In this document: positions 1 to 19,796 of the stretch, in pieces | Position numbering within the stretch: position 1 is the stretch's first letter | Layout of the letters: the number at the start of each line of letters is the position of its first letter | IMG/VR virus record: IMGVR_UViG_3300045115_000040 | Coordinates: 1-24,666 of that record | Source: a virus | Taxonomy: Duplodnaviria; Caudoviricetes | Reading direction: 5' to 3' (one strand) | Length of the DNA stretch: 24,666 nt | Made by a program: the position numbers and the translations under genes | Notes under the pieces: generated by a model | Database searches by the model: none | Seen by the model: the letters and a program-made list of their open reading frames with translations, nothing else | Told to the model about the DNA's origin: nothing

Positions 1-294
1 CGGGGTCACACCCGGGGGAAGATTTCGCGGCGGGGCTTGGCCGGGCTCGGCGAGGCTTGGCGTGGCGAGGCCGGTCGAGGCACCATCACCCCCGGGGTCA
101 AACCCGGGGGAAGATTTCGCGGTTGGGCATGTCCTGGCCGGGCTCGGCAAGGCGGGGCTTGGCCGGTCTTGGCAACACCACCCCTGGGGTCACACCCGGG
201 GGAAGATTTCGTGGAGTGGCAAGGCAGGGCTTGGCGGGGCGATGCTGGGCCGGTCGCGGCGACACCACCCCGGGGGCGTCAAAACCCCCCGGGG
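1..294 (+). repeat. Array of a 36-nt hairpin repeat alternating with GGC-NN pentamer tracts (92-nt period); truncated by window start; candidate guide-RNA array
   Basis: Repeat CA(C/T)CACCCC(C/T)GGGGTCA(C/A)ACCCGGGGGAAGATTTCG at 84-119 and 176-211, partial at 1-27, degenerate terminal hairpin at 263-294. Intervening tracts 29-83, 121-175 and 213-262 are 11, 11 and 10 pentamers, mostly GGC+NN. Confidence 0.9.
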
Positions 295-306
295 CAGCCC
301 ACCCAC

Positions 307-336
307 TTGACACACCGCCCAAGACGTGCGAAGGAT
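307..336 (+). promoter_or_regulatory. Possible sigma70-type promoter
   Basis: Perfect TTGACA at 307-312; only a weak -10 (AAGGAT, 331-336) at 18 nt spacing. Confidence 0.3.
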
Positions 337-885
337 CGCGCAGAGTTGTGAAGTCTACCGATAGAGAGAATTTCGGAGCCCCGCCGATACCCGATTGCAA
401 GGGTCGGCACAGTTCACCGAAGACTGCACAACCGGGGCGCTCCGGGGCCATGCCGATCCGAAATAGGCGGCCCCTCTTTTCCCAGGTCCGCAGGTCGCAC
501 CTGTTCACCACATAAAAAGGCCTAGCGGCTTCCGACCCAGGCACCCGGTACCCAACCCGGGTGAAACAACGAGGAACGTCCTGGCGAAGAAAAACACGGG
601 CGGATGGTCGACAACCGGCCGCCTTAAAGAGCGGGGCAAGCTCCCTTTGCCTTTACAGCCCCGCGTCGTCCCCACGCACCCCGGCCGCCTTAGCGCCGGC
701 AGGCTTCCGATTGGTTAAAGTGTGCCTAGCAGCGTGGACCGTAACGGACTCCCAGCTCATCCCTGAGCGATTCCGCCAACACTCCCAGACGATAATCCCT
801 CGCCGGGTTGTCGTCTGCCCGCACGGTCCAACCCGCCCAAACCCGAACGATTGCCCCCAACCAGCCACGAGCCGTCCCAAGGCGT

Positions 886-934
886 CGCCCGGGCCGACGC
901 CCGGTGGCGCCCGGGCCGACGCCCGGTGGCGCCC
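886..934. repeat. Perfect 22-bp tandem repeat, 2.2 copies
   Basis: CGCCCGGGCCGACGCCCGGTGG at 886-907 and 908-929, plus CGCCC. Unit length is not a multiple of 3. Confidence 0.9.
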
Positions 935-1172
935 CCAACGCAGCGCCTCAGTGCCGGGGCCCAACGGGCCCAGTGCCTGGGACGCCGGCACCGGCACCAA
1001 AACGACACCGGCACCGGGGCCGAACCGGCACCTCGCCCGGTTGCGCCCCAGACGTCCGTTGGGAGCCCAACGGGGCGGAAACCGACAGGGTGGCTCCGGG
1101 GTGGAAAACCGCGACATTCCACTTGCAACGTCGCCGATATGTGCGATGTTCTGTGCCGACAGAAACGACACT

Positions 1173-1457
1173 GTGAACACGGAAACCAGCACCGTCGGCG
1201 CAACCGATACCACCGCTATGCCACCGCCAACCCCGGTTCAAGGCGCGGATCCGCCAGCGAATGGCCCGGGGGCCGCGCCGGTGGAGGCGCGTGAGGCGGC
1301 CGCGCAGGAGATGGCGGAGGTGGCGCGGGATGTGTACGATATGATTGACGAGCTGGCGGTGGAGTTCGTTTGGCGGACGCTGCCGGCCGGCCAGCGGGCG
1401 AAGAGGCTGGGGGAGATGGCGGAGTTCACGCGGTGGTTGCGATCTGAAATCCAATGA
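1173..1457 (+). CDS. Hypothetical phage protein (start uncertain: GTG 1173 or ATG 1218)
   Basis: 3' part of ORF 561..1457 has GC3-rich codons and a helical sequence (EAAAQEMAEVARDVYDMIDELAVEF). Its stop overlaps the next ATG (ATGA). The upstream part of the ORF looks non-coding. Confidence 0.65.
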   Translation: MNTETSTVGATDTTAMPPPTPVQGADPPANGPGAAPVEAREAAAQEMAEVARDVYDMIDELAVEFVWRTLPAGQRAKRLGEMAEFTRWLRSEIQ

Positions 1458-8597: not shown

Positions 8598-9374
8598 ATG
8601 CCGACACCCAAGCAACATTCGCTGCGCCGGTTGGCCCGCATGGTAAGGTTGCCAGGGGTCGCCCCGGGCGTTTTGCGGCGTTTGGACGCGGACGTTCGGG
8701 AATTGGCCCTCTTCAGTGCCGGCGTGACCCAGGCACGGTTCTTGAGCCAATTGCGGCGCGTTCTGATCGGGATTGAACGTGGCGATCTGACCCGGGCGGA
8801 GGCGAAGAGGCACCTGCGCCGGTGGTTGGCGAACACCGGGTATGAGCCGCCGGCCGGTCAGGAGGGGAAGATTCAAGACCTTAGCTCGGACATTCGTCTG
8901 CGGGTCATCGTTGAGACGCAAGCCGGTCTGTCCGAGGGCTACGGTCGGTACATGTGGCAGCGTCACCACCAGAAGCAATTCCCCTACGTTGAGTTGTACC
9001 GGCGCGAGCCCCGGCGGCACCCTCGCGACTGGCCGAAAATCTGGAAGGTGGCCGGCGGCAAGCAGTATGCTGGCCGGTTCATCGCTCCGTTTGGGTCGCC
9101 GATCTGGCTGCGGATTTCGGATTTCGGGCACCCGTACCCGGTGTTCAAGTGGCTGTCTGGGATGTGGACGCGCATGGTGTCGAGCTACCGGGCGGCCAAG
9201 TACGGGTTGCAAGGGGCGGCGAAGAGGGCGAGACTGCCAAGGATGCTCGAAGGGTGCAAATCGGGAATGAAGGGCATAGACCGTGAACTAGGGCGGGTCG
9301 TGACGTCCGCGCTCCCGGGGTGGCGCCTGGACCGCGACGCCATCGTTTGGAGGGGGTCGTGGCCGACGAGCTGA
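8598..9374 (+). CDS. MuF-like (gp30) minor head protein
   Basis: ALFSAGVTQARFL, RLRVIVETQ...GYGRY, FPYVELYR and SPIWLRISDFGHPYPVFKWLSGM resemble the Mu F-like core. Confidence 0.65.
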   Translation: MPTPKQHSLRRLARMVRLPGVAPGVLRRLDADVRELALFSAGVTQARFLSQLRRVLIGIERGDLTRAEAKRHLRRWLANTGYEPPAGQEGKIQDLSSDIRLRVIVETQAGLSEGYGRYMWQRHHQKQFPYVELYRREPRRHPRDWPKIWKVAGGKQYAGRFIAPFGSPIWLRISDFGHPYPVFKWLSGMWTRMVSSYRAAKYGLQGAAKRARLPRMLEGCKSGMKGIDRELGRVVTSALPGWRLDRDAIVWRGSWPTS

Positions 9375-9952: not shown

Positions 9953-10345
9953 ATGCCGGAAGGCATCACAACAGCGACTGTGGCCGGGACAATCGTTGAC
10001 GCGAGCGGGGTTGCCATGACCGGCTATGTTCGTTTCAGTCGGCGCACGGGCCCTGAGGCGTCATCGTCTGTTGTGGTTACAACCGGTCCGATTGACACTG
10101 TCCTTGTGGCTGGGGCGTTCTCGGTCGAACTGTTGCCGGGGCCGTACCTGTTTGAATTCGCTGGAAGCAAGCCGGTTCCGGTAACGGTCCCGGGCACTGG
10201 CGACTATTCGTTGGCGGACCTGTTGGGGAGTGCTGCAACTACCGGGGTCGAGTATCTGAGGATCTGGAACCCGGATGAAGAGCAGTACAACACGGTCCGC
10301 GTTCTTGGGGTCGGTGACGAACGCGGGTTGGTTATCAGCGATTGA
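9953..10345 (+). CDS. Small beta-rich virion protein (possible fibre anchor)
   Basis: TVAGTIVDASG...GAFSVELLPGPY suggests a prealbumin-like sandwich; tightly packed in the operon. Confidence 0.6.
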   Translation: MPEGITTATVAGTIVDASGVAMTGYVRFSRRTGPEASSSVVVTTGPIDTVLVAGAFSVELLPGPYLFEFAGSKPVPVTVPGTGDYSLADLLGSAATTGVEYLRIWNPDEEQYNTVRVLGVGDERGLVISD

Positions 10346-16433: not shown

Positions 16434-16871
16434 ATGGCTGACAACTACGCAATCGCGACGGTCACGGTATTCGGAGCCGGTGCAACGACGGCGTCTATTT
16501 CCGGGATCGCATCGACCGACATGATCGGGATCGAACTGACGGACAACGTCACCGTCACCGAGCAGTTGAGCGGAGTGGGCGAGGTGAGTGGCGCCGTTGC
16601 ATCAGATGCCAGGGACGACGTCACCCTGACATTCTACCCGATCCCGGTTCACACCGGCGCCCCGACGGCTGCGCAATACAAGGCGATTACGCTTCCGGAC
16701 GTGCTTGCCACGGTGGTCGTGGAGCGGGCTTCCGGAGGTGTGGCGTCGAGGAACATTCCGACACGCACCATTGGGACCTTCCGTTACATGGGCAACGGCA
16801 GCATGGACTTCACGGCTGACGGCATGCTCAGGATGAGTCTGCCGTGCAAGAAGTACGAAGCCGGAATCTGA
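16434..16871 (+). CDS. Tail-tube-like protein, paralogue 1
   Basis: 145 aa, beta-rich; GGAGG RBS; shares TxFG, EQ, DxxxxFYP, YxGxG and MxLP motifs with the next two ORFs; synteny. Confidence 0.65.
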   Translation: MADNYAIATVTVFGAGATTASISGIASTDMIGIELTDNVTVTEQLSGVGEVSGAVASDARDDVTLTFYPIPVHTGAPTAAQYKAITLPDVLATVVVERASGGVASRNIPTRTIGTFRYMGNGSMDFTADGMLRMSLPCKKYEAGI

Positions 16872-16881
16872 TGGAGGAACT

Positions 16882-17337
16882 ATGGCTGACCTTTACACAA
16901 CCGGTGTGGTGACGATTTTTGGGGCCAACGGAACCGTCGCGTTGAGCGGGGTGATTGCCGCAAGTGCGATGTCCTCGATCGACTTCCGAGACGACACGAC
17001 CGTTGTCGAGCAGAAAAACGGCGTTAACAAGACGGTAGGACTGGCCGCGCACCGGTTCCTTCAGGACATCAACTTGAGGTTCTACCCGATTCCGCTAGGC
17101 TCCGCCGACACCGACTTCCAGAACATCAACCTTCCTGCCGTGTTCTCCACGGTGCGGCTGACCAGGAACACGCCAGCCACCGGCCCGGGGCAACTTCCGA
17201 CCGAGGTGGCGGGCATGACGGGTGTAGATTACTCCGACTACACTTACATGGGGGGCGGCACCATAACGCTGGCCCAGGAAGGATTCGCGGTCATGACGCT
17301 TCCATGCCGGCGATACGCCGCGATTACTCCAGCCTGA
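16882..17337 (+). CDS. Tail-tube-like protein, paralogue 2
   Basis: 151 aa; GGAGG RBS; TIFG...EQ...DINLRFYP...YMGGG...MTLPCRRY. Confidence 0.65.
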   Translation: MADLYTTGVVTIFGANGTVALSGVIAASAMSSIDFRDDTTVVEQKNGVNKTVGLAAHRFLQDINLRFYPIPLGSADTDFQNINLPAVFSTVRLTRNTPATGPGQLPTEVAGMTGVDYSDYTYMGGGTITLAQEGFAVMTLPCRRYAAITPA

Positions 17338-17338
17338 C

Positions 17339-17794
17339 GTGGACCTGCTCATCATTGGCGAGACGACTATTTTCGGCGTCACTGGGTCGGCCCAGATTGA
17401 CGGTTGGTCGATCATCGACATGACGTCCATGACGCTGCGCGATTCGTTTTCGTTGGCCGAGCAGTTGGACCTGGCCGGTGACATTATACGGGTGACGCCA
17501 TGGAAGAACCAGCACGATGTGACGATAGCATTCTACCCAGTGTCTGCGGACATGTCCCAAATCGACATGCCCCAGCCAATGTCCAGAGTGGCGATTTCTG
17601 CGCGGCCCGGGTACGCAATGCCCAAGGTGTTCGCCCATGACGACTGGCGCTACGTCGGGGAGGGCGAAATTCAGATGACGAACACCGGGCTCATGGTGAT
17701 GCACCTGCCACTGCGACGTTGGAACCCGCTCCACGGGAAGCAGCTTTACAAGGACGGTCAGCCCTACACCCCGCTGTACACCCCGCCGGCATGA
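17339..17794 (+). CDS. Tail-tube-like protein, paralogue 3
   Basis: 151 aa, GTG start; TIFG...EQ...DVTIAFYP...YVGEG...MHLPLRRW. Confidence 0.6.
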   Translation: MDLLIIGETTIFGVTGSAQIDGWSIIDMTSMTLRDSFSLAEQLDLAGDIIRVTPWKNQHDVTIAFYPVSADMSQIDMPQPMSRVAISARPGYAMPKVFAHDDWRYVGEGEIQMTNTGLMVMHLPLRRWNPLHGKQLYKDGQPYTPLYTPPA

Positions 17795-18396
17795 CGAACG
17801 AAGAGCAATTTTTGCGGGTCATCTTCCCTCCAACCCACAGGGTGGCCGGGCGTCGGTTGCGACCTCTGACGCTCGGCCACTACCTGTTGTTGCAGCGGAT
17901 GGGGAATCCTCTGGCCATTCTGAATGGTTTCTGGGACCACGATTGCGAGGCTGGTCATGCGGCGCAGGCACTGTTCCTCTTTACCAGAGGGTGGCGAGAA
18001 GCGTTACGCTTCTTCGAAGGCCCGGAGTTCTGGCAGCAACTGCGTTTGGCTTGGTATGCTGACCACGGCGACGCCCTGATCCAGACCGTGGTTGGGTTGC
18101 ACAACCACGTCATGGATGCATTTAAGCGACCCAACACGATGGCCAAGCCCAAAGGCAGGTTCTTCGCTGTGACGAAGTTGGGGGCCCCGTACTGGATGGT
18201 GACGATAGCGCGCATGGTCGCGCAGGGTCGCACCGTAGAGCAGGCATTGGACGTTCGTGTCCAGGCGGCGCTGTGGATCAACTCGACCGAGGATGAGGAA
18301 AACGGTGTTCTGGACTGGGTGTCGGCGGAGGAGTCGAGCATTCAGGATATGGTTCGCGAAGAGATACGACTAAGGCAGGAAGCGAACAAGGGATGA
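17791..18396 (+). CDS. Probable tail assembly chaperone
   Basis: Between tube genes and tape measure; VAGRRLRPLTLGHYLLLQRMGNP N-terminus; ATGA overlaps at both ends. Confidence 0.6.
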   Translation: MTNEEQFLRVIFPPTHRVAGRRLRPLTLGHYLLLQRMGNPLAILNGFWDHDCEAGHAAQALFLFTRGWREALRFFEGPEFWQQLRLAWYADHGDALIQTVVGLHNHVMDAFKRPNTMAKPKGRFFAVTKLGAPYWMVTIARMVAQGRTVEQALDVRVQAALWINSTEDEENGVLDWVSAEESSIQDMVREEIRLRQEANKG

Positions 18397-19796
18397 TCGA
18401 GACCACCAATAAAGTCGAATTTCGCTACGAGGTCAACGCCGACGACTTTGCAGTCAAAGCCCAGAAGGTGACATCTTCTGTCACCAATATGTCGAAGGCT
18501 GTTGACGATGTGCGGCGCAAAAGCAACTTGACCGACACCGTCGATACCACAGATCGGCAGGTGGCTATCCGGAAAGAGTGGCGGGAGTTGGAGCAGCGCA
18601 GGAAAGAGTTGCGGGAGAACATGAGAGCGTTCGGTGAGAAGCCTGAAGCCGTTGCCGAACTTGCCGCCAACAAGCGTCGCGCCGCAGCTCTCGAACGTGA
18701 AGATTTAGCGATTTTTGCAAAAAGAGAGAAAGAGGAGCGGCGGGCGAATGCCGCCGAGCAAAGGCGCGTTGCTGCGGAGTTGAAAAAGCTCAAGCAGGAA
18801 GAGGCAAAAAGAGAGAAAGAGGAGCGGCGGGCGAATGCCGCCGAGCAAAGGCGCGTTGCTAAGGAGTTGAAAAAGCTCAAGCAGGAAGAGGCGAAAATAG
18901 AGAAGGAGCAAGGCAGGGATGCAGCGCGGAGGGTTTCGCTGCTTCAGCGGTTCATGAACATAGCCGGTGTAGGCAGGTTCGGTCCGAGAAGCCAGATTGG
19001 ATCCATGCTGTTCGGTGGCGGTATTGGTAAGATTGGATCCATGCTGTCCGGTGGCGGTATTGGTAAGATTGGATCCATGCTGTCCGGTGGCGGTATTGGT
19101 AAGATTGGATCCATGCTGTCCGGTGGCGGTATTGGTAAGATTGAATCCATGCTGTCCGGTGGCGGTATTGGTAAGATTGGTCTTGCTGCAGTGGCATATT
19201 TAGGGAAGAAGGTTCACGACATAGTATCTGGCATAACCGAACAGGCAAGGCAATGGAAGGATGTAAAAAACCCAGCCACTTCCCTCCGGCGCGAAATGGC
19301 GACGTATGTTCCTCCTGGCGAGGCTATGGAACGGACGCGGTACTCTTCGAAGGCTGAAGCTGCACGGCTGGCGATGGAAACTAAGTTGGGGGGTAAATTG
19401 GCTGGTATAAAAGAATGGGCGGCGAAAGGGTTCATTCACTATGTGTATGGAACAAAGGCCCTAATTCGCACCGTTGCAAATGCCGCGAGAGGTGAAGGGT
19501 GGAATTACTCGGAGTTCGACAAAGCCAACAAAAGGCTGAAGGCTATAGGGTCGCCTGGGGGTGCTGAGTTGCGCTATTGGATGAACACAGAAGAAGTCAG
19601 AAAGGCATCCGATGCGTACATGGCGACTGGAGAGGAGTCCGTCGGTCTGTTCGCAACGTCGGCCAGGGGACAGTCTGTCAGCTCGCAGGCACATACGATG
19701 CAGTCGCTGGTCGACGCGATCAAGAGCGCGTCTGACAACCTGGGGCGGATATCGAAAAACCTCAGCGAGCAGTCCGTCAACAAAGGGCCGCTTTAG
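18393..19796 (+). CDS. Short tape measure-like protein, 467 aa
   Basis: Long charged helical region, Gly-rich GSMLSGGGIGK repeats, position after the chaperone. Confidence 0.7.
   Translation: MIETTNKVEFRYEVNADDFAVKAQKVTSSVTNMSKAVDDVRRKSNLTDTVDTTDRQVAIRKEWRELEQRRKELRENMRAFGEKPEAVAELAANKRRAAALEREDLAIFAKREKEERRANAAEQRRVAAELKKLKQEEAKREKEERRANAAEQRRVAKELKKLKQEEAKIEKEQGRDAARRVSLLQRFMNIAGVGRFGPRSQIGSMLFGGGIGKIGSMLSGGGIGKIGSMLSGGGIGKIGSMLSGGGIGKIESMLSGGGIGKIGLAAVAYLGKKVHDIVSGITEQARQWKDVKNPATSLRREMATYVPPGEAMERTRYSSKAEAARLAMETKLGGKLAGIKEWAAKGFIHYVYGTKALIRTVANAARGEGWNYSEFDKANKRLKAIGSPGGAELRYWMNTEEVRKASDAYMATGEESVGLFATSARGQSVSSQAHTMQSLVDAIKSASDNLGRISKNLSEQSVNKGPL
18717..18890 (+). repeat. 87-bp (29-aa) in-frame tandem duplication
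   Basis: Units at 18717-18803 and 18804-18890 are identical except for one codon (GCG vs AAG). Confidence 0.95.
18996..19180 (+). repeat. 36-bp (12-aa) in-frame tandem repeat, 5 copies
   Basis: ATTGGATCCATGCTGTCCGGTGGCGGTATTGGTAAG starting at 18996, 19032, 19068, 19104 and 19140; single substitutions in copies 1 and 5. Confidence 0.95.

Follow-up and report, generated by a model that had tools for sequence, protein, structure and literature searches.

VIPR, described in 2026, is a system by which phages bind DNA under RNA guidance; 667 such systems, and vrRNAs of 9–16 pentamers, have been reported. The accessible portions of the VIPR preprints demonstrate that vrRNAs are expressed, that each pentamer is covered by one subunit of a Vipr filament, that the code skips one nucleotide per step and that silencing occurs, and the targets they describe are satellites, prophages and prophage regulators, vipr genes, vrRNAs and REP decoys (10.64898/2026.04.26.720920, 10.64898/2026.04.26.720927, 10.64898/2026.10.15.759431, 10.64898/2026.10.21.760802). 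According to the same portions, VIPR shares with class 1 CRISPR RAMP effectors a protein polymer on guide RNA and a structured handle that serves as a cap; they are silent on how vrRNAs gain new specificity without Cas1. Characterization has centered mainly on enterobacterial and Pseudomonas phages, and type II VIPR is represented by Escherichia phage SUSP1 (PDB 36pp) and a P. fulva prophage.

The DNA investigated here, referred to as the window, is the whole 24,666-nt stretch of a Caudoviricetes record from IMG/VR (IMGVR_UViG_3300045115_000040). The repeat at its start very probably comprises the three final units in a set of nine vrRNA guides belonging to a phage VIPR system (a vap1-like gene, vipr and an array), whose likely role is to silence genes of rival elements. 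VIPR is already published and this array is a further case of the published systems; the locus is probably of type II. Directly observed were the anatomy of the locus, the Vipr homology with retained RNA-contact residues, a gene partner that is conserved and, in contigs from lake metagenomes, variant alleles of the guides. By analogy with SUSP1 and P. fulva, the array would be transcribed and cut into units, giving predicted RNAs of ~70–100 nt. Vipr would form a filament on this guide RNA, bound at each GGC, leaving the NN bases to read double-stranded DNA in steps that each skip one base; genes of rival mobile elements would likely be silenced.

An exact scan of IMG/VR with the linker motif found a single locus, a contig (L001) carrying seven motif copies. 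The contig and the window agreed at 10,211 of 10,211 nt, and a further 4,548 of 4,548 nt matched at the record's far end; L001 therefore supplies the DNA upstream of the window. The combined layout is as follows.

L001 8662–9186: vap1-like gene, 174 aa.
L001 about 9218–9262: U0, a short tract (the ninth guide) between the vap1-like gene and vipr, in which the register breaks by 2 nt past the third pentamer; its tail hairpin is its own and differs from the others.
L001 9337–9918: vipr, 193 codons, 405 nt upstream of the window.
L001 9926–10350: guide units U1–U5.
Window 1–28, + strand: truncated 3' tail of guide unit U5 (L001 position 10323 is window position 1).
Window 29–83, + strand: U6 guide tract, 11 GGC-NN pentamers.
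Window 84–120, + strand: U6 3' tail, 37 nt, with a CAYCA leader, an 8-bp hairpin and AAGATTTCGY (folding z −3.8).
Window 121–175, + strand: U7 guide tract, 11 pentamers; the first three NN are common with U4 and a three-NN block is common with U6.
Window 176–212, + strand: U7 3' tail, 37 nt, with a single C>T change that preserves the stem as a U-G pair.
Window 213–262, + strand: U8 guide tract, 10 pentamers, identical to U2; NN 2–9 fit a tRNA-Trp(CCA) anticodon arm, on its antisense strand, when one nt is skipped per step.
Window 263–300, + strand: terminal variant tail with a longer hairpin (z −2.7), where the array ends.

Downstream of vipr, tracts U1–U8 hold 13, 10, 7, 11, 7, 11, 11 and 10 pentamers, each followed by a tail, and the window contains the last three. 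Compared with the 9–16 reported for VIPR, six of the eight fall within 10–13, whereas U3 and U5 have only 7. Type II VIPR of SUSP1 and P. fulva shares with this locus a phage-borne arrangement with one accessory gene, one guide ahead of vipr and an array behind it, and GGY-NN tracts followed by a constant structured 3' tail. The differences are that nine tracts are present here against four in SUSP1, the tail is a single predicted hairpin with no pseudoknot seen, the scaffold is GGC with regular GTC units instead of mixed GGT, and the guides are duplicated and mosaic; their one candidate target is a tRNA, and no satellite target was found. A consensus scan found neither a sigma-70-type promoter nor an array terminator. 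RNA data carrying the locus were listed for none of 13 runs, which counts neither for nor against transcription. Ahead of the VIPR locus, L001 (66–8229) encodes a terminase large subunit, two C5 DNA methyltransferases and an RlpA-like lytic transglycosylase.

The initial annotation had placed a RAMP/Cas7-like partner gene upstream and had likened the repeat to the GGY/NN arrays of VIPR. Both points were borne out on the identical contig, where the 193-codon ORF returned the SUSP1 Vipr (PDB 36pp) as its single PDB match at E ≤ 1 (E 8.4e-31). Residues H17, K33, R39, E71, M72, K82, G87, K88, R138, D177, W178 and R179 are RNA or DNA contacts in the SUSP1 structure, according to the available part of its description (10.64898/2026.04.26.720927). 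Along the 36pp alignment, H17, K33, G87, K88, R138, D177, W178 and R179 were retained and K82 was replaced by R, so the GGY-contact residues are shared with type II VIPR; the departures were R39, aligned to G, and E71/M72, aligned to D/N. The predicted Vipr model (pLDDT 85) has a RAMP fold with a G-loop, as in class 1 CRISPR effectors, and its best structural matches were Csm3/Cas7 chains (E 6.9e-5, TM 0.48) in a library reaching to 8 April 2026 that lists no Vipr chain. A RAMP homologue with G-loop and thumb next to the array, expected of VIPR, is thereby present on L001. Homologues at E ≤ 0.001 numbered 631 out of 939 candidates. Identity to the Felixounavirus copies was ~38%, and the nearest cellular copies, mostly from Alphaproteobacteria, were 34–41% identical. 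Neither Pfam, NCBIfam nor PADLOC holds a Vipr model, and PADLOC gave no match for any of 48 Vipr proteins.

Among the 69 related viral loci compared, several are nearly identical to one another. GGY-NN tracts adjoined vipr in 66 of the 69, consistent with the expectation in the initial annotation of a conserved partner gene beside homologous arrays. Tails of close relatives had constant flanks and varied stems, with 34 distinct stems, mostly of 8–10 bp (selected for at least 5 pairs). Only one of the 69 carried more tracts than the nine of this locus, in a count by a parser that splits some tracts. The locus and its relatives extend the VIPR design to environmental phages, in a version where the tail is a simple hairpin and the arrays are large. 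In four relatives, L009 (tracts 747 and 596 nt before vipr), L055, L008 and L058, the parser called tracts of 21–34 pentamers, compared with the 9–16 reported. Another, L003 (10001–12200), showed 12 called tracts of the same tail family and clearly mosaic guides, with the vap gene lying within its array.

The family of the 174-aa ORF was present in 50 of the 69 related loci, downstream of vipr in 48 and upstream in 2; here it lies ahead of vipr. Its profile matched the gene after vipr in Felixounavirus wV8 (gp94) with E 1.3e-6 in a single comparison and an hhalign probability of 38%; the wV8 gene was taken as vap1 because of its position. The sequence match of the accessory gene to vap1 is thus weak. 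The predicted model has a core of helix-strand-helix-helix-hairpin, and its Foldseek matches were weak, to winged-helix proteins (E ≥ 0.024). ESM Atlas matches were to viral clusters only, and Pfam and NCBIfam hold no vap model.

Within the window, the tracts of 11, 11 and 10 pentamers and the NN strings given in the initial annotation were reproduced exactly. The repeat geometry was partly revised: the 92-nt period held for the first two spacings, but the linker is 37 nt rather than 36, and the last spacing, to the terminal hairpin, is 87 nt. The ending GGCCG-GTCNN-GGCRN, claimed for every unit, was present in all three window units and in seven of eight units of the whole downstream array. 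The longest pentamer run was 11 in the window compared with 5–6 in 30 base-shuffled windows under the identical scan rule. The 32 scaffold triplets comprised GGC (25), GTC (4), GGT (1), GGA (1) and TGC (1), and 13 distinct NN dinucleotides were used. GTC units, placed after GGCCG, may interrupt palindromes within tracts. An 8-bp hairpin folded in each linker (z −3.8 and −1.9; terminal variant −2.7). The U6 tract alone and the U7 tract with its tail also folded more stably than shuffles (z −2.5 and −2.7; window 29–83 and 121–175). The final NN is of low entropy in relatives: 114 of 160 tracts have AA there, and the entropy is 1.47 bits vs. ~3.8 further in. Going by sequence, the last NN of each tract therefore probably belongs to the tail rather than to the code.

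The guides of this array were repeated and mixed. U2 is identical to U8, U3 and U5 differ only at the last NN, and NN blocks are common to U1, U3 and U5, to U4 and U7, and to U6 and U7. Across 52 dereplicated loci, 9 of 327 guide pairs within arrays had at least four consecutive NN in common; the corresponding rates were 0.3% for shuffled guides and 0.1% for pairs from different loci. Most of this mosaic signal came from L001 and L003. Variant alleles were compared in contigs from 8 of the 13 listed lake-water runs, all short-read assemblies. A U4 allele ending like U1, U3 and U7 was found in two runs at depths of 12.4/29.6 and 22.8/56.6 (~40%), the 5' part of U7 was fused into U6 in two runs (one as a loose end, one as a joint), and U1 and U2 carried point changes in one other run. 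These alleles fit recombination or gene conversion between tracts, with the proviso that short-read contigs of repeats can be chimeric. From these sequence patterns we infer that new guides arise, at least partly, through recombination between pentamer tracts. Recombination is not mentioned in the accessible portions of two preprints (10.64898/2026.04.26.720920, 10.64898/2026.04.26.720927), and the passage available in a third concerns cloning (10.64898/2026.10.15.759431). The duplicated, mosaic and co-existing guide alleles make this array a direct test case for recombination as that source.

Potential targets were sought in gapped scans of sequence collections, which were exact-match and used a skip of one only. 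The 1-nt-skip, wobble-insensitive code assumed for these scans had been proposed from the window and agrees with what the VIPR preprints show for SUSP1, so that by analogy it would apply here. Scans of viral contigs over 18 bases gave no match for U6, U1, U7 or U4. A 19-base scan of metagenomes with U6 gave 10 matches in ~6 unrelated groups, and these were treated as chance. With U7, a 16-base scan of viral contigs gave 12 matches; three were wobble-aligned in a portal motif with the following two codons mismatched, and these were likewise treated as chance. At three loci (L159, L167 and L170), the U7 pattern covers eight wobble-aligned codons of a conserved motif of portal-like proteins, as judged from translations, and the two groups represented are 48% identical. 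The comparison with shuffled controls suggested in the initial annotation showed no excess: in ~2 Mb of related loci, none of seven own guides exceeded shuffles at skip 1, and 149 clade guides showed no excess at any skip. Targeting of rival vipr genes was considered, as U2/U8 resembles the L-G-D-W-R loop in codon phase, and was rejected, with no guide above shuffles in loci holding 69 related vipr genes. Within the known 38.5 kb of the phage, no self-target at 80% or above was found for five distinct longer guides. U3 had a self-match of 11/12, a value that shuffles usually reached as their maximum in the larger related-loci search. Matches of 80–95% count as natural VIPR targets (10.64898/2026.04.26.720920), and the absence of targets is weak evidence because exact scans miss such matches.

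The alternation of a hairpin repeat with variable tracts, and the open frames that traverse the region, could also be expected of a CRISPR mini-array, a neutral satellite or a low-complexity coding stretch. We regard this as extremely improbable, given the fixed 5-nt scaffold, the units of 72–102 nt that are mostly not multiples of 3, the absence of Rfam matches across the array and the identity of the neighboring gene as Vipr. Cas1 was absent in both records examined, which are fragments (42–48% complete), and the PADLOC result for the 48 Vipr proteins points the same way. CRISPR-Cas itself was rejected, as neither contiguous unique spacers nor cas genes were found in these records, in keeping with the minimal, mostly viral loci of VIPR; the gapped two-base code differs from the contiguous spacer of class 1 effectors. 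Of the description as a CRISPR-like array, the guide array with a RAMP partner stands, but CRISPR is only an analogy, the hairpin being a vrRNA 3' tail and not a CRISPR repeat. A second possibility accepts VIPR by descent and holds that the array is decaying or a sink, in which unequal crossing-over copied and scrambled units and left most guides targetless. The repeated and block-sharing guides would suit this, as would the 7 of 32 window triplets that are not GGC (6 not GGY) and the lack of a target found for most guides. Nevertheless, vipr and vap are intact, the tails are near-identical with preserved stems, degenerate scaffold triplets are seen across the clade, and the exact scans are blind to targets of 80–95%; decay is consequently judged improbable, and the VIPR guide set remains the preferred reading.

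To the VIPR reading we add the tentative and rather doubtful proposal that the duplicated U2/U8 guide brings Vipr to tRNA-Trp genes, be they carried by large phages with tRNA genes or, in the host, a tRNA or attachment site. Two copies of the guide are present in the array, and its 16-base scan gave 42 matches. Of these, 32 fell in the tRNA-Trp(CCA) anticodon arm, on the antisense strand (16/16, skip 1), and represented 19 distinct genes, many within tRNA clusters. The eight NN of the pattern had been fixed before the scan (the first pentamer being GGA and the last one tail), and the remaining 10 matches were about as many as the 12 of the U7 pattern of equal size. The chance of a perfect eight-NN match is ~2e-8 per tRNA gene, which makes the match unusual, and ~2e-4 to 2e-3 per pattern assuming 1e4–1e5 tRNA variants. 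In a variant strain, both differences in the guide, two changes only, hit scaffold letters. Against this, the match is to one conserved element, noted post hoc among seven gapped scans, and the U7 scan was likewise clustered, with 3 of 12 matches in the portal motif. The first NN of U2/U8 fully matched in no tRNA case, with a whole-guide best of 17/20, and single-tRNA match loci had 25–41% GC vs. 62% for this phage. The pattern was also absent from all 151 genomes sampled from one phylum. Matches between 162 guides of relatives and ~126 tRNAs showed no excess, and tRNA targeting as a clade-wide trait was rejected.

U2/U8 is complementary to the tRNA sense strand, and therefore the tRNA itself might also be bound. 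If true, the match would widen the range of known VIPR targets to tRNA genes or attachment sites; tRNA as a target is not mentioned in the available parts of three preprints (10.64898/2026.04.26.720920 with its supplement, 10.64898/2026.04.26.720927, 10.64898/2026.10.15.759431), and our search found no literature joining VIPR with tRNA genes or guide diversification. The fuller combination, in which a lake-phage VIPR reprograms itself by tract recombination and also aims its silencing filament at tRNA-Trp genes through a duplicated guide, is one that we consider unlikely to hold as a whole.

Downstream of the array, window positions 300–1200 form a region of ~900 nt with no convincing gene and with short direct repeats near 886–935 and 985–1020; similarity to this region was sought in the 69 related loci and in Rfam, and none was found. 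The remainder of the window carries phage head and tail genes, including those for portal, protease and capsid, and the capsid protein gave no match to cultured phages. The ORF at 18393–19796 contains an in-frame 87-nt duplication and a 36-nt tandem array (window 18717–19180). Three neighboring ORFs of ~150 aa each (window 16434–17794) have a common motif spaced ~450 nt apart and are likely paralogous tail genes.
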